A stretch of 48,054 nt of DNA from a virus (lineage: Duplodnaviria > Caudoviricetes), in the IMG/VR virus record IMGVR_UViG_3300031953_000029, positions 1 through 48,054 of that record; one strand, given 5' to 3'. Every line of letters starts with the position of its first letter. The first letter of the stretch is position 1. The position numbers and the translations under genes are program-made. Of this stretch, positions 2,919 through 43,153 are shown one piece after another. The notes under the pieces were generated by a model. It was not told the origin of the DNA. It was given only the letters and a program-made list of their open reading frames with translations, and did not search any database.

Positions 2919-3248
2919 TTATGAGTGAAGGCGGTATGCGATAATCTCAGCGGGGTCATTGCTGCCAGAATAGAACCAGTTGTTCCCGTCATCTGACGTG
3001 TCTTTCCAGTGCGCCACGGTTTCGCCTCGGATGTCGATACCCCCGTCACGGAATTTTACATCAACACGAGTATCAAGGGTCAATCCTTTAGGGAATTCGC
3101 CTCCCCACCAAGTGACCCACCCGTCCGGTTCCTCACCCAGCCCCAACCGATCCGCAGCGAGCCGCAAGACCAGAGCGGACCCAAGGGGAAGGGTGTTGGC
3201 AATCTCGCGCAGTGCGTCCGCAAGGTCAGTATTGGTTGGACGGGTCAT
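2919..3248 (-). CDS. Hypothetical protein with W..G..P/V.V.FRDG/I.AYR micro-domain (paralog 1)
   Basis: ATG at 3248 overlaps the upstream stop (ATGA) after GAGGAG SD; C-terminal domain resembles three other ORFs here. Confidence 0.7.
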   Translation of the reverse strand: MTRPTNTDLADALREIANTLPLGSALVLRLAADRLGLGEEPDGWVTWWGGEFPKGLTLDTRVDVKFRDGGIDIRGETVAHWKDTSDDGNNWFYSGSNDPAEIIAYRLHS

Positions 3249-3415
3249 TCGGTCCACTCCTCTATTAGGTCGCCGGGATTTTTCGTGCCGATAGCTGCGG
3301 AACCACTTGGCCACCACGAAAAATTACCGTACTTAAATCCATTTCCCTCTTTGGTCATAGGTCCCACCTTTCGACTGTCTCGCGTCTTATAGTACCCGCC
3401 TTCCTTGATCTGCAC
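3245..3415 (-). CDS. Small hypothetical protein (56 aa, not in ORF track)
   Basis: MQIKEGGYYKTRDSRKVGPM...GDLIEEWTE; AAGGAG SD; resembles the N-terminus of 39656..40051. Confidence 0.7.
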   Translation of the reverse strand: MQIKEGGYYKTRDSRKVGPMTKEGNGFKYGNFSWWPSGSAAIGTKNPGDLIEEWTE

Positions 3416-8704: not shown

Positions 8705-8880
8705 AGCCCCAACTCCTTAGCGATAGCGCACCGTAGCACATGCTCAATGCTGTTATAGTCTCGCCCCAACTGATCGAGGTAATATGTCCCGTGGCTATCC
8801 CACCCGCCATGATCGGAACTTGACGAGCGTTTACGATACCACTGTTCGTGGGTCGTGATTGGTCCGAGTGGGGCAGTCAT
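8701..8880 (-). CDS. Small hypothetical protein (59 aa, not in ORF track)
   Basis: MTAPLGPITTHEQWY...AIAKELGL; start and stop overlap both neighbours. Confidence 0.6.
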   Translation of the reverse strand: MTAPLGPITTHEQWYRKRSSSSDHGGWDSHGTYYLDQLGRDYNSIEHVLRCAIAKELGL

Positions 8881-9077
8881 TTCGTCACCACACGATAATG
8901 AGTGATGTCCAGAGGGTAAACCGGATCATCATGAACCCAATTAGATTGCCAGAATTCCACCGTTGCTCCCCATTCGCCTTTATCGGTGATCCCGTTTGCA
9001 AACTTGACTTCGACTCGCGTATCCATTGGCAAGTCCGGGTAGCGTTTGCCATGGTGTTCGATCCATTCTTCAGTCAT
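8877..9077 (-). CDS. Micro-domain paralog 3
   Basis: WIEHHG..YP...TRVEVKFANG...DITHYR; AGGAG SD. Confidence 0.7.
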   Translation of the reverse strand: MTEEWIEHHGKRYPDLPMDTRVEVKFANGITDKGEWGATVEFWQSNWVHDDPVYPLDITHYRVVTK

Positions 9078-9093
9078 GTCCGTCTCCTGTACC

Positions 9094-9140
9094 TGACCCA
9101 CCTGTCATAACTTGCTACAGAGACCATTGTCAACTATTAT
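9094..9140. promoter_or_regulatory. Overlapping opposed promoters with operator
   Basis: Operator 9094-9107; leftward TTGACA 9133-9128; rightward TTGCTA-N17-TATTAT 9112-9140. Confidence 0.65.
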
Positions 9141-10496: not shown

Positions 10497-12401
10497 ATGG
10501 CGGTAACGGCAGACGTAGTTGAGGTTCGCCTAGAGGCCAACACTACCCAGTATTTGCGTAACCTGACTACGGCGGGCACGTCCTTTGAGCGCATCATCTC
10601 GAAGATGGAAGCCGAGGCACGCACGTCCGGTCGGGCTTTCACTGCGGTTGGTCTCAATGCTCAGGGCGCTTTCCAACAGGTCGTAGACGGCGCGCAACGT
10701 GCCCAATCTGCCGTTGCTGGAGCTAATCTCCAGGTTGGCAACATTGCCGCGCAGTTCCAGGATATCGGCGTTACTGCTGCCTCGGGTATGAACCCTCTGA
10801 TTATTGCGCTCCAGCAGGGTACGCAGCTATCCGCTATTCTAAACCAGTCTCTCTCCCAAGGCGTGAGCCCCGTTCGTGCCCTTGGGGCAGCATTCGCCCA
10901 GATCGTCAACCCTATCTCCTTAGGGACCATTGCGGTCATTGCTCTTGGCACTGCGGCCATCCAGTATTTCGGCACGTTGATTACTCAGGGGCAGATTTCG
11001 GAGGAAACCCTAAAGAAACAAAACGACCTGATTCGAGACGTTGCGGACCAATGGGGCGATGCGGTCCCCGCGCTGAAGGCGTACGTGGACCAATTGGACC
11101 GTGCGGCCAACGTAGGCGACCTTAACACCGCCACGGATACCGCAATCGCTGCTCAGTACCAAGACCTCATTACCACAGTTGGCAATTTGCGTGCTGAGTT
11201 CGCAGCGGTCCGCATTGACATTCAGCAACTCGGCGGTGACGCTCAGGAGATCGACGCTCTACAGGCCGCGTTTAATGAATTGGAACGCAAGGCTCGTGAG
11301 GGTACAGCTACCGCAGAGGACCTCAATCGTGTCGTCGCACTTATTGGCAATAGTACGGCAGCAAGTGTTCCCGGCGTTGCGAGCTTGTCAGCCACTCTTG
11401 GCGGTCTGGCAACCGCGTTCGCACAAGCTGCGGCACAAGCTGCCGCGTTCGATAAACAGCGGAGAGAGGCTCTCCAACAGGGTCCTTCATTGGACTCCTT
11501 CTCGTCCAACCAAAAGTTTATTGCCGAGCAGCAGCGTATTAACGGCCTGACAGCGGAGCAACTGGCCCTTGAGAATGAAGTTGCCCGGATCAAACGGTCC
11601 GCCGAACGGGACGAAATCCCTATCGGGGATCAACAGGCGCTCGATTTGGCCAAGCAGACACTTGCCGCCGAGGAACGCCGTCGTGAAATAAAGAAAGCCG
11701 ATACGGCGGACAACCGCGCGGGGGCTAAAGCGGCAACCGAGGCCGAACGGGAAGCTGAGGCAGTCGTAAAACTAATCCAGCAACTTCAGCTAGAATACGA
11801 CCTGATTGGCGCGACAAACTCCGAACGCGCCGTAGCGAACGCCCTGCGTACAGCGGGCGCTGCTGCCACGGAGACACAGCGCGATAAAATCGAAGCTCTG
11901 ATAAACGCGACGTATGCGGAAACTGAGGCCATCAAGGCAGCGGACGAGGTTACTAAACTTTGGTCCGATACACTCCAGTCTGCCACACGGGGTTTCATTG
12001 ACGACCTGATCGAGGGTAAGTCGGCAGCAGAGGCGTTCAGTAACGTGCTGTCCAGCATTGCCAATAAGTTGATTGACGTTGGCCTTAACTCGGTGTTCAG
12101 CGGGTTCCCTGGATTTGGTACACCCACCCGTGCCACGGGCGGACCGATCTATTCTGGCGGACCTACCCTCGTTGGCGAGAAGGGGCCCGAGCTATTCGTT
12201 CCGTCTGGCCCCGGCAAGATCGTACCCAACTCGCAGATCGGCGGCGGGGGTTCTGTCGTGTTCGCCCCTAACATTGACGCTCGCGGGGCCGACGTGGCCG
12301 CAGTGGCCCGATTGGAGACGGCGGTGCAGCGCTTGGCAGCTGAGGTCGTACCGACTATACGTAAAGAAATTGCCAGTGGGCCTAAAAAAGGGCGAAGTTA
12401 A
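10497..12401 (+). CDS. Tape measure protein
   Basis: AQFQDIGV..ASG.NP..IA.QQG.Q domain, helical Ala-rich body, C-terminal RA.GG..LVGE.GPELF. Confidence 0.9.
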   Translation: MAVTADVVEVRLEANTTQYLRNLTTAGTSFERIISKMEAEARTSGRAFTAVGLNAQGAFQQVVDGAQRAQSAVAGANLQVGNIAAQFQDIGVTAASGMNPLIIALQQGTQLSAILNQSLSQGVSPVRALGAAFAQIVNPISLGTIAVIALGTAAIQYFGTLITQGQISEETLKKQNDLIRDVADQWGDAVPALKAYVDQLDRAANVGDLNTATDTAIAAQYQDLITTVGNLRAEFAAVRIDIQQLGGDAQEIDALQAAFNELERKAREGTATAEDLNRVVALIGNSTAASVPGVASLSATLGGLATAFAQAAAQAAAFDKQRREALQQGPSLDSFSSNQKFIAEQQRINGLTAEQLALENEVARIKRSAERDEIPIGDQQALDLAKQTLAAEERRREIKKADTADNRAGAKAATEAEREAEAVVKLIQQLQLEYDLIGATNSERAVANALRTAGAAATETQRDKIEALINATYAETEAIKAADEVTKLWSDTLQSATRGFIDDLIEGKSAAEAFSNVLSSIANKLIDVGLNSVFSGFPGFGTPTRATGGPIYSGGPTLVGEKGPELFVPSGPGKIVPNSQIGGGGSVVFAPNIDARGADVAAVARLETAVQRLAAEVVPTIRKEIASGPKKGRS

Positions 12402-12405
12402 TATC

Positions 12406-12984
12406 ATGCAAGATTTCCCCGGTTGGACCGTACAATTCGAGCTTCTGTACCGTCAGGAGCAGTCCCGGCACGCAAGTGGCCGTACGCGCGTCAAGGACTT
12501 TGGCACACCCATCTGGACCGCCTCTTACCAGTCGCGACAGATGCGGCCCAATGAGCTAGACGAGTGGCGCGCGCGTCTGAACCTGCTAGAGAACGGCCTG
12601 AACACCTTCCAAGCTTGGCCCATGTCCCGTTGCTGGCCTATCCGCCACCCGAACGGTGTGGGGGCGGTCAATGGTACTATCGCGGCGGTTGGTCTGGACA
12701 ATAAGTCCCTATCGATCACATGGAACTCAGGCGGACCCACCATTCTATCCGTCGGGGACTATATCAACGTCAATGGCCTGCGTTTGCATCAGGTGACGGA
12801 GCTACGTGGGGCCGGGGTGGTGGGTGTTGCACCTTTCCTGTCTACGGGTATACTTGTTGGCCAAGCGGTAGATGTGAGCCAGCCATCAGTGGCAATGACA
12901 CTTCAGCCGGGGTCTATCAATACCCAAACGGGCCTTAACGGGCGCGGATCGGTGACATTCCAAGCAATCGAGGCACGGGGCTAA
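12406..12984 (+). CDS. Distal tail (Dit-like) protein
   Basis: Follows tape measure; G.P.W.A.Y and WRA.L..L.NG motifs. Confidence 0.7.
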   Translation: MQDFPGWTVQFELLYRQEQSRHASGRTRVKDFGTPIWTASYQSRQMRPNELDEWRARLNLLENGLNTFQAWPMSRCWPIRHPNGVGAVNGTIAAVGLDNKSLSITWNSGGPTILSVGDYINVNGLRLHQVTELRGAGVVGVAPFLSTGILVGQAVDVSQPSVAMTLQPGSINTQTGLNGRGSVTFQAIEARG

Positions 12985-12989
12985 GCAAC

Positions 12990-13220
12990 ATGAACCGACG
13001 TTCCCTATTCAAAGGTCTTTTCGCTACTATTGCTGCGGCCCCTATCGTGGCATTGGTAGGTCGGGGTAAACCCTATCTCAACGGCGAACATGGGCCAGAA
13101 CTGTTCATGGCTAACTACACGCCCATGCCCCTTAGTGCAAGGGGGACGATTCGGTTCCGCATGACGGCGCTGAGTGGGCCGAACGGGTACAGCCGCACTG
13201 CAATTGGGGCACGGGGCTAA
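12990..13220 (+). CDS. Mini-protein with Tat-like signal and tail-protein-derived motifs
   Basis: MNRRSLFK plus hydrophobic stretch; fills the gap between tail genes; TAATG coupling to next gene. Confidence 0.6.
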   Translation: MNRRSLFKGLFATIAAAPIVALVGRGKPYLNGEHGPELFMANYTPMPLSARGTIRFRMTALSGPNGYSRTAIGARG

Positions 13221-13885
13221 TGCGCGCTATTTCCACAGCTAACCAAGCGGCCCTCGCTGCACGTAGGTTGGTCGCACGGGACTTCCTGTCCATCACGGCC
13301 CGTACTAGAACCACGGGTGCCCCTGTGGCACTCAACTTCTGGTCAGACATTGAGAACGTCAGCGCTCTCGTGCTTGACCCCGATACCCTTCTCCCCGTCC
13401 TGCGCAGCTATTATGGCGCGGGCGGTTTGGTGGAGATCAGCGATATCCCAGCCGTATCGGTCATCCAGGTACAGGATGTGAATATCCGCATGAGCCAGTT
13501 GGACGAGTTTGTCCAGCAAGCCGTTCGACTTTATGACGCCAAACAAGGTAGAGTTGAAATCCATAGAGGGCTTTTCGACCCCGAGACCCGAAATCTTGTG
13601 GCCCCTGCTGTCGTGCGGTTCGTCGGGTTCGTCAACGTCGTTGAAATCCACACACCCAAAGAGAACGAGGACGGGTACGTTAATTTGACCTGCGTTAGTC
13701 ATACGCAGGAACTCACCCGTTCAAACCCCGCCACCCGCAGCCACGAAGACCAGAAACTCCGCAGCGCCTCCGATACGTTTTTTGTAGACGCAGCGGTCGT
13801 GAGTGACTGGGACCTCAACTGGGGCGGCATTAAGGCTAGCGTAGGTGGGGGCAATAGCCTCGTAGGTCGTAAGGGACTAGTATGA
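13220..13885 (+). CDS. Minor tail/baseplate hub protein
   Basis: Position after Dit; RS.EDQ..R...D.FF......W...WG C-terminal motif. Confidence 0.7.
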   Translation: MRAISTANQAALAARRLVARDFLSITARTRTTGAPVALNFWSDIENVSALVLDPDTLLPVLRSYYGAGGLVEISDIPAVSVIQVQDVNIRMSQLDEFVQQAVRLYDAKQGRVEIHRGLFDPETRNLVAPAVVRFVGFVNVVEIHTPKENEDGYVNLTCVSHTQELTRSNPATRSHEDQKLRSASDTFFVDAAVVSDWDLNWGGIKASVGGGNSLVGRKGLV

Positions 13886-14295
13886 CAGCCCGCCTCGCTA
13901 CGGCCAATGACGCCCACCGTACGGCCCGTCTGCTCCTCGACTTCCACGAGGCTAGCGGGTTGCCATTCGAGACGAGTGCGGCATGGGCACTGGCACTATT
14001 TCAATCGCACCTTAACAACCCGGATAGTGTCATCATTGTCAAAGATGGGGGCGTGCTGATCGGTGCGGTCGGTCCATCACAACTGGGGCCGTTCAAGATC
14101 GCTCAGGAGATCGCGTGGTGGGTGGACCCCGCGCACCGTGGCGGGTCACTCGATATGCTATCGATGTACGAGGCGTGGGCGCTCACCAATGGCGCTAAAT
14201 TCATTGAGGTCAAGTCCCTGGCCCGCTTCCCTGGAACTGAACGGCTGTACCGCGCTAAAGGGTACGTACAATGCGAGACCAGTTGGATTAAATGA
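13882..14295 (+). CDS. GNAT-family acetyltransferase
   Basis: E.AWWVDP.HRG and LY...GY motifs. Confidence 0.75.
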   Translation: MTARLATANDAHRTARLLLDFHEASGLPFETSAAWALALFQSHLNNPDSVIIVKDGGVLIGAVGPSQLGPFKIAQEIAWWVDPAHRGGSLDMLSMYEAWALTNGAKFIEVKSLARFPGTERLYRAKGYVQCETSWIK

Positions 14296-17200
14296 CATTC
14301 TTTACCTCTATCGCTGTTGCTATCGTCGGTGCCGGTTCCTTCCTTGTGCCAATTGTGGCCGGTGCGCTCCAAGTGGCCGCAGGTATCGCCCTCTCATATG
14401 TGGCTAAGGCTATCGCGGGGCAACCCGAAGGTCCACGTTTTGAAGTCAAGGGTCAGGTTCAGGGCGGGGATGATGTGCCTCGCTCAATCCTGTTTGGCTT
14501 CAATGCCACGGCTGGTTCTATCGTCTATGCGAACACGTGGGGCCAAGCGAACGGGGTGGGCAATGCTTACCTCGTTCAGGTCATTGCCCTAGCGGACTAT
14601 CCGATCCGGGAACTGCTCTCGATTGAGGTCAATGGCATTCCCGATACACTAGGTCCGACTGCACTCGGGAACCGAGGCTTCCCCGTGCTTGGATTCCGTA
14701 AGAACGGCGTAGACCATATGTGGGTCAAGTTCTATGACGGAACGCAGACGACCGCCGACACCTACCTTACCGGCACAGTAGCTAGCGCGGCCCGCCCGTA
14801 TGATACGAACCGTGTGGGCCGTGGCATTCCCTATGCCATCGTTACCTGCATGGCACCCGAGCGCAAGGACGGCGAGCAGCAGCCACTATTTACGAGTGGT
14901 ATCCCGCGTTTCAAGTTCGTCACCAACGGGGCTCGGCTTTACGACCCTAGCCGCGACACCTCGGTCGGCGGGAGCGGCACTCAGCGATACGCCGACCCCT
15001 CCACGTGGGGTGGTGACGGTGACTTCCTGCCAGCGGTTCAGACTTACAACGTCCTCCGGGGCATTCGTTACGCTGGGGGTTGGCTGTACGGCCTACAATC
15101 GCTTCCGGCTACGCGACTTCCGGCTGCCAACTGGATCGAACAGATCAACAAGTGCCGTGCGGGCATTGCTGGCCCCTCTGGCACTGAACCTACGTACCGA
15201 ACGGGTGGTGAATTGGACGTGTCCGCACAGGTTAAGGACGCCCTTGAAGCGTTCCTGACCGGTTGCCAAGGTAAGCTATCTGAGGTCGGTGGTGTCTATA
15301 AAATCCACGTTGGCGAACCCGGCAGTCCGGTTCTTGCCTTCACCGACGGGGATATCCTCTCCACCGAGGAACAGACATTTACGCCATTCTACGGTCTAGA
15401 AGACACCATCAACGGCATTCAAGCTACTTACCCCAACCCTGCTGAAGGGTGGTCTACCAAGACCGCTCCACCGCTGATCCGTACGGACCTAGAAGCGCTT
15501 GACGGAAACCGTCGCCTAATGGCGAGCGTGGCGCTCACCTTCGTGCCTTACACGGGCCAAGTGCAGCGCATCGTCCAATCGGCCCTACGCGAGGCCCAGC
15601 GTGCCCGTAGGCATACCTTTGTCATGGGTCCGGAGTTCTGGGTCCTTGAACCGGGTGATGTGGTCCGCTGGACCAGTACCCGCAACGGATACGAGGAGAA
15701 GCTATTTCGCGTGGACGGCATGGCCGACCGTGGCAATCTGGATGTAATGCTAGACCTGACTGAGGTGGACCCCTCGGATTACAGCTGGAACCAAGACACC
15801 GACTTCCGCCCTGTCATTGATGGCCCGTTGCAGCTAGTCGGCACCCCCGCCCTTCCCGCCATCGGGTGGCAGGTGTACGGCGCGATTGTTCTCGACCAGA
15901 TGGGCCGTGCGCGCCGACCGGGCATTGAGGTTGCTTATCAGCCGGGTTTGCAGGGTGTAAGCCATGTGCGTATTCAGGTGCGTAATGTCGGCGCTACGCT
16001 ACCTTTTATCGACGTACCACCCGTGGCGTATGGCGATCCATGGCGCACGCAAATCGCTGGGGATTGGCCACCTAATACCACCTTCGAGGTTCGAGGCATT
16101 TACGTACTCGTCGGGGGCGGGGACGCAATATGGTCTGATTGGCTCACCGTAACTACCCCCGACGTTAAGTTAACGGCTGGGCTCGACTTCGATCCGTTTG
16201 AAAGTGTGGTTGGGTTCGAACAGCTGGGCGATGATCTTGGTGGGTTTATCAACTGGATCGGACAGAGCCCCCGTGAACTGATCGAGGCGATTCAGGATAC
16301 GAACACCCACGCCGCCGATCAGGAAATGGCCAACAGCGATACATTCCGTCAGGTGCGGACTGAGGTCGCCGTTACGGTGGGTGATGTCGCGGCTTCATTC
16401 CAGCAGACCATAACCGTTGCCATCGTCCCGATCCAAAATGAACTCCAAGCTCTGGCCGACTATTTGACCGAGCTTACGGCGGGTAATGGATCGGATGTGA
16501 GCACGGGCCGTTTCCGTATGACCGTACTGAGCGGGCCGACTGGGTACTCCCGCATTGGCGCTGAGACTCGTGTCGATACGGCGGACCCGTTAGCATGGCG
16601 AGGAGCGGCATGGTATCTAGACACGCCCAATAACTCCGCATTACCCACGAGGTTCCTTGTCAACGCGGATCAGTTCATTGTCGTCAATGGCACAAATACG
16701 GTCAGCCCTTTCATCGTGTCCGGTGGCACCATTCTGGCGAACAATGCGATCATTCGAGAACTTGAAGCATTGAATATCAAAACCCGTTCACTGACGGGCG
16801 ATAGGATGGTTCTGGGTTCCCTAACCTCTGCCGAAATCAACGTCACCCAACTAGTCGCATCTAGCGCGTTCGTTGACAACCTTGTCGTACGATCCGGCAA
16901 CTTCGAAAACCTGTCAGTTGGTCGTAACGCAATCGCCAATGGCGCATTCGCAGACTACTATACCGGGACTACCGGAAGTGGGCTTATTTACTACTCCGAT
17001 CCATTCATACCCGGAAACGAGCCTGTCAATATGTCTGCATCCGCGACAGTGAACATCACCGCAGGTGGTAGCAATCCAGGCGGCACTATCGGCGTTTACT
17101 TGCAAAATGACACTACGAGTGAACTCATTCTGATTGGGAGTACCATTCAGGTGGGAACTTACGTTTATGAGAGAACTTTCCTGAGAAAGCTTGTAAGTGG

Positions 17201-17303
17201 GCAAACCTATCGCGTTCGTTATCAAGCTTTCAATGTGGGAACCACGGGAACATCGTCCATAACGACCACGCCTCTTTTTAGCATTGTAGTCTTTAGAAAA
17301 TAG
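14292..17303 (+). CDS. Tail tip/central host-specificity protein
   Basis: 1003 aa; PR.I.FG, G.RLYDP and LEPGDV motifs; C-terminal RF.V.ADQF region. Confidence 0.85.
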   Translation: MTFFTSIAVAIVGAGSFLVPIVAGALQVAAGIALSYVAKAIAGQPEGPRFEVKGQVQGGDDVPRSILFGFNATAGSIVYANTWGQANGVGNAYLVQVIALADYPIRELLSIEVNGIPDTLGPTALGNRGFPVLGFRKNGVDHMWVKFYDGTQTTADTYLTGTVASAARPYDTNRVGRGIPYAIVTCMAPERKDGEQQPLFTSGIPRFKFVTNGARLYDPSRDTSVGGSGTQRYADPSTWGGDGDFLPAVQTYNVLRGIRYAGGWLYGLQSLPATRLPAANWIEQINKCRAGIAGPSGTEPTYRTGGELDVSAQVKDALEAFLTGCQGKLSEVGGVYKIHVGEPGSPVLAFTDGDILSTEEQTFTPFYGLEDTINGIQATYPNPAEGWSTKTAPPLIRTDLEALDGNRRLMASVALTFVPYTGQVQRIVQSALREAQRARRHTFVMGPEFWVLEPGDVVRWTSTRNGYEEKLFRVDGMADRGNLDVMLDLTEVDPSDYSWNQDTDFRPVIDGPLQLVGTPALPAIGWQVYGAIVLDQMGRARRPGIEVAYQPGLQGVSHVRIQVRNVGATLPFIDVPPVAYGDPWRTQIAGDWPPNTTFEVRGIYVLVGGGDAIWSDWLTVTTPDVKLTAGLDFDPFESVVGFEQLGDDLGGFINWIGQSPRELIEAIQDTNTHAADQEMANSDTFRQVRTEVAVTVGDVAASFQQTITVAIVPIQNELQALADYLTELTAGNGSDVSTGRFRMTVLSGPTGYSRIGAETRVDTADPLAWRGAAWYLDTPNNSALPTRFLVNADQFIVVNGTNTVSPFIVSGGTILANNAIIRELEALNIKTRSLTGDRMVLGSLTSAEINVTQLVASSAFVDNLVVRSGNFENLSVGRNAIANGAFADYYTGTTGSGLIYYSDPFIPGNEPVNMSASATVNITAGGSNPGGTIGVYLQNDTTSELILIGSTIQVGTYVYERTFLRKLVSGQTYRVRYQAFNVGTTGTSSITTTPLFSIVVFRK

Positions 17304-21166: not shown

Positions 21167-22334
21167 TTGCCAACACCACCTCTCGGACGCGACCTCGCAC
21201 AAGAGGCCGTAGACGCGCTTGCCTTGCATGGCTCCCAGATCGCCGCTGCTGCCGCGCTTGGTATCGCTCGTGGGACCATCCAGGGCCGCTTGGCCGCAGC
21301 GAGCCGATACGGGTTCAACCCGGTCCCCGAGGGGTTTGAGGTCTCCCAGATATCCCACGGACCCAACGGGGATTTCGTCAAGATGCGACCCGAGGGGCCA
21401 GCGACGGTCCTACCGGAGGGTTTGGTCCTCAAGGGCGCTTCGGTTCTATCGCGCGATGGGCGCGAGGTGGTCCGTTGGGACAAGTACGGTACGGACGGTC
21501 AGCTGTCCGATGGGGCGCTGGCTAAGGCCGTACGGGAAGCCATGGAGGATTGCCCGCTTACCTATGACTCCCACCCGCTATACCAGACCCGTTCGGACCT
21601 CCTGACCGTTATACCACTAGTCGATTGGCACGTTGGGCTATTAGCGTGGGAGGAGGAGACTGGCGGTAACTATGACTTGAACATTGCACAGGACACGCTA
21701 CGGCGCGCAATGACCGATCTGGTCGAGGCGACCCCGCCGTCCCAGCGGTGCGTTATTCTTGGCCTTGGAGACCTGCTCCATTTCGACGGGTACGAGGCCA
21801 AGACGGAGCGCAGCGGCAACGTACTGGATACGGACAGCCGCTACCCCAAGGTCCTACGGGCCGCACTGAAGCTAGTCAAATATACCATCGACCTCGCATT
21901 GACTCGCCACGAGCTTGTGGACGTTCGGATCACGACACTCGCGCCGCACTGGCCGTCGCTATCGCACTGGCCGAGGGGTACGAGAAACACCCGCGCGTGA
22001 CGGTCAATGACTCACCAGCGTACATCTGGTTCGAGCGCTACGGCAAGGTCCTTCTAGGTGCCACCCATGGCGACAAGGCCAAAATGTCCGATATGCCCTT
22101 GCTGATGGCCGTTGACCGTCCAGACGATTGGGCCGCATCGACACGCCGTCGGGTCTTTACGGGCCACATACACCCTGAGCGCCTACGGGAAGTTGGGGGC
22201 GTTGTGGTCGAGTCGCTGCGGTCGCCAAGGACGCGCGGCATAGCTTCGAGGGGTATCGTGCGGGCCGATCCGTGTACGCCTATACATTCTGGACCGATGG
22301 GACACGAATGGCCCGACACGAGTTTGAGATTTAA
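21167..22334 (+). pseudogene. HTH plus calcineurin-like metallophosphoesterase, doubly frameshifted
   Basis: DWHVG, GDLLH, [GN]HD, HGD and GHIH motifs split over three frames, with breaks near 21930 and 22226. Confidence 0.75.
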
Positions 22335-22531
22335 GCGGGCGGGTCAGGTGGACGACGTACCAAACTAGACAACAGTTCTTCAACCTGCCATCGCCGTTCG
22401 TCTGGGTCTAGCCGGGTTTCATGACCGCAAGCGTCACAACGTGTGTGACCCACGAGCGCATCCACCTGACTAGGTTGCCCCATTTCGGCGTCGCACTCTT
22501 CACAGTGCTTCCACAGCCAGCCCATTTGCAT
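22331..22531 (-). CDS. Small zinc-ribbon protein
   Basis: CEEC...CDAC; AAGGAG SD; promoter upstream. Confidence 0.6.
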   Translation of the reverse strand: MQMGWLWKHCEECDAEMGQPSQVDALVGHTRCDACGHETRLDPDERRWQVEELLSSLVRRPPDPPA

Positions 22532-33047: not shown

Positions 33048-33073
33048 TAGGGACAACGAAACGGAGATACCAA

Positions 33074-33235
33074 ATGTTTGAAATCAACCTGAACGATCAG
33101 ACCGTAGCAATCAAGGCTTGGTTCGATGACGAGACCAACGAATGGTTGGCTAGCAAGTCCATCAATGGCCATATCGTGGCTATCGTTGAGGGGTTCGGCA
33201 CTAAGGAAGAAGCCGAGGAGGCCGTCCGTGGCTAG
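33074..33235 (+). CDS. Small acidic hypothetical protein (53 aa)
   Basis: GGAG SD within the conserved leader; MFEINLNDQ... Confidence 0.6.
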   Translation: MFEINLNDQTVAIKAWFDDETNEWLASKSINGHIVAIVEGFGTKEEAEEAVRG

Positions 33236-38248: not shown

Positions 38249-38468
38249 ATGCTGCGGTCATCGCGTACTTTACAGCATCTTCACGGAACTTGCGGTTGAA
38301 CATCTTGGCGAAGGTAGCGTCGAATCCGCTTACCTCTGCTGCGCATTCACAGACTGCGAGAGAAACGTCCTGATACTTGAAGGCCCAACCGGAAGCACCG
38401 CTCTTGGCAATCGCAGTGAGGTTAGCGATCATGGTTTCGACTTCGCTCTGGAACTGTTCGTAGGTCAT
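38247..38468 (-). CDS. Hypothetical protein (stand-alone cassette)
   Basis: Own promoter/operator (38510-38524) and conserved 24-bp leader. Confidence 0.7.
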   Translation of the reverse strand: MTYEQFQSEVETMIANLTAIAKSGASGWAFKYQDVSLAVCECAAEVSGFDATFAKMFNRKFREDAVKYAMTAA

Positions 38469-38495
38469 TTGGTATCTCCGTTTCGTTGTTGACCC

Positions 38496-42784: not shown

Positions 42785-42956
42785 CACCATCATAGCGTGG
42801 ATCGCGGCTCTGTTCTTCCTTCTTATGGCCGGGGCGTTTCTCGTGTGGGTTCTAACCCGTAGCCGCATAACGCCATCGGAATCAGTCGTAGCGATAGGGT
42901 ATATTGTTATCTTCCTCACCATGGCATGGGGCGCTGCGGCCCTTGGGGGTGTGTGA
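42777..42956 (+). CDS. Small two-TM membrane protein
   Basis: Two hydrophobic helices; coupled operon. Confidence 0.55.
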   Translation: MLSTIIAWIAALFFLLMAGAFLVWVLTRSRITPSESVVAIGYIVIFLTMAWGAAALGGV

Positions 42957-43153
42957 TGTGGGTTGACCACGACGGCAAGTTCCTCCCGACCCATGCGCGC
43001 CTGACTGACCGTGTGCGCGTGCGGTTCCGGGATGGTCAAGAGACCAATGTAGCCGAGCAGGTCCGCTATTGGGCCGGGACGGCTAGTAACTGGTCGTGGG
43101 ACCCTCGTTGGCCGGGGGATAGTGAGATTGTGGCGTACGAGGTGGTGAGATGA
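42956..43153 (+). CDS. Micro-domain paralog 4
   Basis: WVDHDG..LP...RVRVRFRDG...EIVAYE. Confidence 0.65.
   Translation: MWVDHDGKFLPTHARLTDRVRVRFRDGQETNVAEQVRYWAGTASNWSWDPRWPGDSEIVAYEVVR

Follow-up and report, generated by a model that had tools for sequence, protein, structure and literature searches.

Why does a phage tail operon carry, between the genes for its distal tail protein (Dit) and its hub, a gene of 76 codons which begins like an export signal and continues with pieces of tail proteins? The window, i.e., the entire stretch of DNA analysed here, is a complete virus record of 48,054 bp with direct terminal repeats. A sequence-only reading had described the small open reading frame (ORF) as a twin-arginine signal followed by motifs of three of the phage's own tail proteins. 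It had offered two explanations, an exported decoy for superinfection exclusion or against defence sensors, or a new gene born from recombination debris. The ORF itself is borne out as described. The insertion, two of the motifs, the coupling to the genes on either side and the repeated occurrence of the design are directly observed. We propose that the mini-gene is an optional accessory gene of the tail operon whose product may be a decoy which binds bacterial or prophage defence proteins recognizing tail parts. Judged by sequence comparisons, we give this proposal somewhat less than an even chance.

An optional gene at the Dit/hub junction

According to PHROG matches the tail module is of the siphophage type and comprises genes for a major tail protein, a chaperone, the tape measure, Dit, a hub-like protein, a GNAT acetyltransferase, the central fibre and a further fibre (Table 1). 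The acetyltransferase gene (13882-14295) lies between hub and central fibre, the place it also occupies in those related loci whose maps were examined. The phage encodes its own DNA polymerase, helicase and primase (PHROG). It is probably lytic because a PHROG scan of 75 window ORFs returned no integrase match. The host is likely a member of the Hyphomicrobiales since relatives of the hub gene reside in genomes of Devosia, Pelagibacterium, Agrobacterium, Rhizobium, and Mesorhizobium. The sequencing runs that match best are metagenomes of brine, some of which may be the source of the record; no RNA run was among those listed, a result without bearing on expression.

Table 1. Coordinates of the mini-gene, its parts and the tail genes to which it relates
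Feature	Position	Strand	Remarks
Tape measure gene	10497-12401	+	PHROG match; holds donor motif 12162-12197
Dit (distal tail protein) gene, upstream neighbour	12406-12984	+	phrog_1302, E 1e-28
21-nt repeat, first copy	12964-12984	+	last 7 Dit codons; 19/21 nt vs second copy
Optional insertion, 236 bp	12985-13220	+	skipped in X14 and X18; absent from X20 and X21; covered in X19
Mini-gene, 76 aa	12990-13220	+	start 5 nt past Dit stop; stop overlaps hub start (TAATG)
Predicted twin-arginine (Tat) leader	12990-13061	+	N-R-R-S-L-F at residues 2-7, then 16 uncharged residues, mean hydropathy 2.11
Copy of tape-measure C-terminal motif (GExGPELF)	13071-13106	+	vs 12162-12197
Copy of central-fibre segment, lineage-specific	13152-13196	+	vs 16509-16553; predicted beta-hairpin in donor
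21-nt repeat, second copy	13200-13220	+	restores gene end ahead of hub gene
Baseplate hub-like gene, downstream neighbour	13220-13885	+	phrog_2048; relative annotated 'hub protein' in PP232116
Central tail fibre / tail tip gene	14292-17303	+	lambda gpJ-type (PF13550, PF09327); holds donor segment 16509-16553

Three further observations concern the window outside the tail module. Small paralogous ORFs are scattered at 2919-3317 (-), 8877-9101 (-), and 42926-43153 (+), and two of them match phrog_9174, a family of unassigned function. The ORFs 21167-22000 and 21748-22368 overlap in different frames and match phrog_704 (DNA repair exonuclease) in consecutive stretches; they read as one split or frameshifted gene. 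A perfect 24-nt inverted repeat (33053-33076 and 38466-38489, 5.4 kb apart) is probably a shared gene-start or regulatory element.

The mini-gene is optional among close relatives. In contigs of two runs, X14 (compost) and X18 (abattoir), whose identity over these genes is about 93%, Dit is joined to hub with exactly 236 nt missing, and at the junction 13-19 letters fit both sides. In two other compost runs (X20, X21) the Dit sequence runs directly into position 13200. In a fermentation run (X19), diverged by about 7% in the flanks, two overlapping contigs cover the whole insertion with no listed indel. The insertion is absent from the contigs of four runs of close relatives and present in one, a count from which the X13 contigs were left out as the junction lies outside their coverage, and to which X12 adds nothing since it yielded no contig aligned to the window. 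The two copies of the 21-nt repeat are the sole pair of such similarity in the genome at a spacing of 30-1000 nt. Among 112 related loci the gap between Dit and hub is at most 60 nt in 80 and above 60 nt in 32, and of the 15 loci whose hub genes are most similar, seven have Dit and hub overlapping by one base. A direct Dit/hub junction is therefore likely the ancestral state, which the repeat restores ahead of the hub gene.

The junction of tape measure and Dit (12400-12415) is a second hot spot for small inserts: about 250-257 extra letters are found there in close relatives of runs X14 and X19, and the X13 contigs have loose ends. Several related prophages (L018-L023, L095) carry opposite-strand accessory genes at either junction, including small ORFs which by eye resemble lipoproteins.

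The mini-gene lies on the same strand as its neighbours and starts 5 nt past the Dit stop; no promoter match was found there. Because the gene is co-oriented with the tail operon, tightly coupled within it and lacks a promoter match, it is probably expressed late and together with the tail proteins.

The X19 allele has 14 listed changes in the ORF, in codons up to about 59 when those near contig ends are set aside. They amount to 7.5 nonsynonymous and 6.5 synonymous changes, i.e., a pN/pS of 0.42, which at p about 0.14 is not significant. The four listed changes in codons shared with the tape measure (G32, G35, L38) or in the fibre motif (R55) are all synonymous; the replacements, A17V, L22I, G26D, N31T, H34R, T44K, and R51K, fall outside the donor-shared residues. 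For the window mini-gene alone purifying selection is suggested, but below significance.

Composition of the mini-protein

The tape-measure likeness, 9/12 aa and 23/36 nt, holds up. It is weak in a pairwise comparison (E 0.12). A profile of 53 tape-measure relatives, from which the window protein was excluded, scores the mini-protein at 14.6 bits; none of 5000 shuffles reaches this value and it is the top score among 517 short ORFs. The fibre likeness is stronger, with 13/15 aa and 35/45 nt, and includes the serine encoded by AGC in one copy and by TCC in the other. At E 6e-9 it is the sole match of a short ORF to a structural protein in an all-against-all comparison of 563 window ORFs. A corresponding profile of fibre relatives, again excluding the window protein, yields 21.1 bits, a score reached by 0/5000 shuffles and by no other of the 517 short ORFs. 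The third likeness, to Dit, exists as a DNA repeat. The similarity at the protein level (L..RG...F and AIGARG) was rejected as not significant since a Dit C-terminal profile scores -0.3 bits and 787/5000 shuffles do as well. Consequently, of the mimicry of three tail proteins that had been claimed, tape measure and central fibre stand and Dit does not: in the mini-gene two protein motifs are borrowed, and the third likeness is a junction repeat in the DNA.

The donor segments are located about 0.9 kb upstream (tape measure) and 3.4 kb downstream (fibre) of the mini-gene, in which the copies are fused in frame. They differ in character. The tape-measure motif is among the top 5% of the most conserved windows in 53 homologues. 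The fibre segment, at the 57th conservation percentile, is specific to the lineage of the window phage. The tape-measure donor region weakly matches residues 1126-1169 of T5 pb2 (E 0.02), a protein whose C-terminal piece, after cleavage, remains in the tail and contains a muralytic motif (bioRxiv 2022.09.20.507954). Within 13083-13100 the copy reads H-x-x-E. The histidine is a lysine in the phage's own tape measure, T5 pb2 also has a histidine, and in the X19 allele it is an arginine; hence the position is not conserved.

When fibre residues 680-880 are modelled with AlphaFold (29 sequences, pLDDT 85), the copied segment falls on a strand-loop-strand hairpin within a beta-meander. Foldseek searches with this fragment gave weak matches, with a virion chain of phage SU10 at rank 1 and lambda gpJ713 at ranks 2-4 (E 6e-3); a wide fold search returned generic beta-sheet matches only. 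The donors are thus a lambda gpJ-type central fibre and the C-terminal region of a siphophage tape measure, the region corresponding to T5 pb2C. Only 12-15 residues of each are copied, so the mini-protein is no structural substitute for either. A single-sequence model of the mini-protein has a mean pLDDT of 59, with low confidence past the leader.

That the copies differ from their donors mostly by synonymous changes is confirmed. A different codon is used at 10 of the 22 shared residues, and synonymous differences from the phage's own donors greatly outnumber replacements (Fisher p 0.0005). This pattern reads as conservation at the protein level and would fit either selection on the copy or its capture from a gene of another phage. 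An assembly artefact was ruled out since many synonymous sites distinguish the copies from the donors and there is also a diverged allele.

The leader, predicted to be helical over residues 3-25, has the features that the sequence-only reading had assigned to it. It fits the Tat consensus Z-R-R-x-phi-phi (PMC13673990) and continues with a hydrophobic h-region, both as in bacterial Tat signal peptides. However, a Pfam/NCBIfam search gave no match of the window ORF to the curated Tat families TIGR01409 or PF10518. Among 14 other leader-bearing mini-proteins one is above the TIGR01409 cut-off (L341, 18.7 vs 16.7 bits) and three more match at weaker scores, whereas the window leader remains below curated detection. 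Against a profile of nine periplasmic leaders of the host it ranks first of 563 ORF N-termini (20.7 vs 9.2 bits), a result which is partly circular as those leaders were found via a profile that includes the ORF. A six-member family profile finds the leaders of MdoG, beta-lactamase-like, solute-binding and OmpA proteins. The translocase gene tatC is present in 5/5 host-related genomes. Typical Tat cargo is a folded enzyme, whereas the cargo here is a predicted unstructured mosaic of 52 residues; Tat tolerates substrates which are small, unfolded and hydrophilic (PMC13673990, PMC6708511). Export of heterodimers with a signal on only one partner is stated for Tat as well (PMC10924467).

Mini-proteins of the same design in other phages

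The mini-protein as a whole is solitary. A search of a 5.8-billion set returned the mini-protein itself only, and 1.84 billion representatives yielded itself and three unrelated repeat-rich proteins. No whole-length homologue was found in IMG/VR; GenBank phages gave only weak tape-measure and unrelated matches, and an Atlas search gave no usable match. The mini-protein belongs to no PHROG, Pfam, NCBIfam or PADLOC family, and the mini-gene has no Rfam match. The search for intact homologues, then, has a divided outcome: a whole-length homologue was not found, yet an apparently intact copy exists in the 7%-diverged relative of run X19.

A different picture emerges when the design is searched for. 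Scanning 113 hub loci for short twin-arginine ORFs uncovered four with fibre-like bodies (L004, L058, L079, L101). In L079 and L101, the latter from a prophage in Rhizobium subbaraonis, the mini-gene follows the phage's own fibre gene, with whose C-terminus it shares 60-65% identity; copying of the extreme fibre C-terminus is seen in many family members. An ORF of 186 aa in L048 (4507-5067) resembles the body of the L058 mini-protein and fibre pieces, possibly as a longer or leaderless relative.

A strict DNA pattern, leader plus tape-measure motif, matched three times in IMG/VR, and 3/3 are in-frame leader-bearing ORFs in morphogenesis regions, one of them cut by the contig end (L117). Another strict DNA pattern gave 0 matches. 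Loose DNA patterns produced mostly chance matches: from 119 metagenome loci four were in frame and two true, one identical to the window gene and one to L118; from 65 viral loci four were in frame and none was true. Profile searches across the order and the Devosia family returned mainly fibres and ordinary periplasmic proteins. Altogether 43 distinct candidate ORFs, many of them spurious, passed a loose filter, and 18, including that of the window, were kept by tail match or by eye. These 18 mini-proteins with twin-arginine leaders form 15 body clusters (<60% identity). About 11 have scored tail matches; in L117, L118, L335, and L350 the tail likeness is weak or judged by eye.

Individual members are instructive. 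L118 combines a tape-measure-like piece with a fibre-like piece, the latter weaker (E 0.025), and is thereby a two-donor mosaic like the window gene. L345 occupies the same Dit/hub junction in an unrelated prophage, is coupled to the hub gene by TGATG and lacks the Dit repeat; its body, unrelated to that of the window gene, is composed of two pieces of its own fibre in permuted order. In L341 there is a motif of its own tape measure (14/19, E 3e-8), in L348 the same fibre segment as in the window gene and in L116 the same tape-measure motif. L348 and L335 directly precede what by eye are probable small-terminase genes. The class traits, a short ORF, a twin-arginine leader, a body from structural proteins of the phage and a location among morphogenesis genes, are all present in the window gene. 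Two further short ORFs with twin-arginine leaders, L388:5001 (+, 95 aa) and L389:5110 (-, 73 aa), have bodies unlike the tail tip; by their motifs the first looks like part of a lectin-type fibre and the second like part of a capsid protein.

Comparing rates of change, the window gene by itself remains without significance, as stated above, and the sister lineage L079 is under purifying selection: dN/dS is 0.26-0.43 and among close pairs the leader has no replacement (p 0.002 and 0.012 for the lineage). In these pairs the body has a dN/dS of 0.3-0.8 vs 0 for the leader, which is the most constrained part. Decay occurs elsewhere in the family: L329 and L330 are frameshifted and in L331 the hydrophobic stretch is shortened. 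When mini-proteins are ranked against fibres, the phage's own fibre is top or tied in 7/8 correctly assigned cases, which derive from about four independent lineages; L325 and L355 are omitted because the own-fibre ORF was wrongly assigned. For the window gene 4/46 other fibres outscore its own.

A literature search, which reached few subscription papers, did not find phage Tat-leader proteins with virion fragments. The 2026 Tat review, in its phage sections, describes no Tat substrate from a phage (PMC13673990), and PMC12409349, in its available text, discusses Ocr-type decoys only. What the window case contributes is the design with pieces of tape measure and central fibre, a precise polymorphism for presence or absence of the insertion, a junction at which insertion occurred independently, and one lineage under selection.

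Possible functions

Were the mini-protein a decoy, it would be made late, alongside tape measure and fibre. Its unstructured body would show tail epitopes to a tail-assembly inhibitor or a sensor, and by way of the leader the bound factor would reach the Tat translocase, to be retained at the membrane or exported as a hitchhiker. The same route would clear the unbound mimic, and the phage's own tail assembly would be spared poisoning.

Known systems offer precedents by analogy. DSAD1, a protein of Bacillus phage SPbeta, acts against DSR2: it mimics the tail tube and blocks the sensor, whose pocket it occupies (PMC10973363). As a phage protein which imitates a tail protein it is a precedent for tail mimicry in counter-defence. 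In contrast to the mini-protein, its target is known and its mechanism proven, and the available text of that source reports no export leader; the mini-protein is pieced together from short, literal copies of two tail proteins. [quoted passage not shown] At the level of regions, those copied into the mini-gene match the ones linked to these defences, and the counter-defences anti-Tab and Ati are lytic or late genes (PMC10884400, PMC11364771), anti-Tab being a late gene (PMC10884400). The likeness has limits. Anti-Tab and Ati adjoin their cognate defence gene and, in the available parts of the sources, are not described as tail copies; for the mini-gene no partner gene was found, and a PADLOC search with nine proteins gave 0 matches (library of 2023). 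Tab is located on the opposite strand with its own promoter (PMC10884400); opposite strand, own promoter and prophage expression, as in Tab and Tai, are not seen with the mini-gene.

For a decoy speak, besides these analogies, the optional nature of the gene, the synonymous changes of X19 in donor-shared codons, the synonymous excess over its own donors, the 15 body clusters, the selection in the L079 lineage, the self-likeness of the bodies, and a translocase which tolerates small unfolded substrates and is encoded in all host-related genomes. Against it stand that selection on the window gene alone is not significant and that the synonymous excess could reflect capture from genes of another phage. 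Most relatives do without the mini-gene, family copies decay and the leader lacks a curated match. The self-likeness comes from few lineages, and some other fibres beat that of the window phage. Fast export would also clear the unbound decoy from the cytoplasm before its target is met.

The main alternatives use the same observations differently. Classical superinfection exclusion, one of the functions suggested from the sequence, is less likely because of the very features which point to late expression: orientation, coupling inside the tail operon and the lacking promoter match. An exported protein might nevertheless act in the periplasm. There, envelope partners of fibre or tape measure would be occupied by its tail-like peptides, which would block superinfection or keep progeny off the lysing cell. 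The resemblance of the leader to those of periplasmic host proteins is consistent with this, as are the weak match of the donor motif to the tail-retained muralytic piece of the T5 tape measure (bioRxiv 2022.09.20.507954) and the frequent copying of the extreme fibre C-terminus. Yet little protection of lysogens is to be expected from a gene which lacks a promoter match and is coupled within the late operon, peptides of 12-15 residues would hardly rebuild a trimeric binding surface, and the same leader type occurs with non-tail bodies (L388, L389). We consider this proposal unlikely. Tolerated recombination debris, i.e., a leader-bearing cassette which picked up tail fragments and is kept only for its translational coupling to the hub gene, we hold to be more unlikely still. 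The flanking repeat which restores the junction, the missing whole-length homologue, the insignificant pN/pS and the frequency of inserts at the Dit/hub junction agree with it. However, fragments from donors on either side are fused in frame, the design recurs in many body clusters, once at the same junction without the Dit repeat, and the sister lineage is under purifying selection. Together with the apparently intact copy in X19 this disfavours pure debris, the second explanation originally offered.

Two other possibilities have, in our estimate, a slim chance each. The mini-protein could poison assembly in co-infecting relatives by inserting into their fibre trimer or tape-measure complex and dragging it to the membrane. 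The copied fibre segment, modelled as a beta-hairpin in a beta-meander, is a plausible strand-swapping unit and the targets would parallel those of Tab and Tai, but the motifs are self-like and would be made beside the phage's own tail proteins, and Tab, unlike the mini-gene, has its own promoter on the opposite strand. Alternatively, the leader alone may act by jamming or modulating the host Tat translocase late in infection, with the body as filler. Its constraint in the L079 lineage and the free variation of bodies between members argue for this; filler, though, need not come repeatedly from the phage's own tail proteins.

Returning to the decoy, its most specific form, in which epitope baits from the phage's own tail proteins, joined to a twin-arginine leader, would evict the biting defence protein via the Tat translocase and the copied segments would list the tail epitopes under immune recognition, is a conjecture from sequence to which we assign a low probability. 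Were it true, it would be a counter-defence not met in the literature searched, which combines literal mimicry by self-fragments with the export machinery of the host. It can be tested directly with natural relatives that have or lack the insertion, and with cultured hosts which carry family members in prophages. In that case the tail epitopes under attack could be read from the copied segments, which may also serve as baits for unknown sensors and assembly inhibitors in rhizobia and their relatives.
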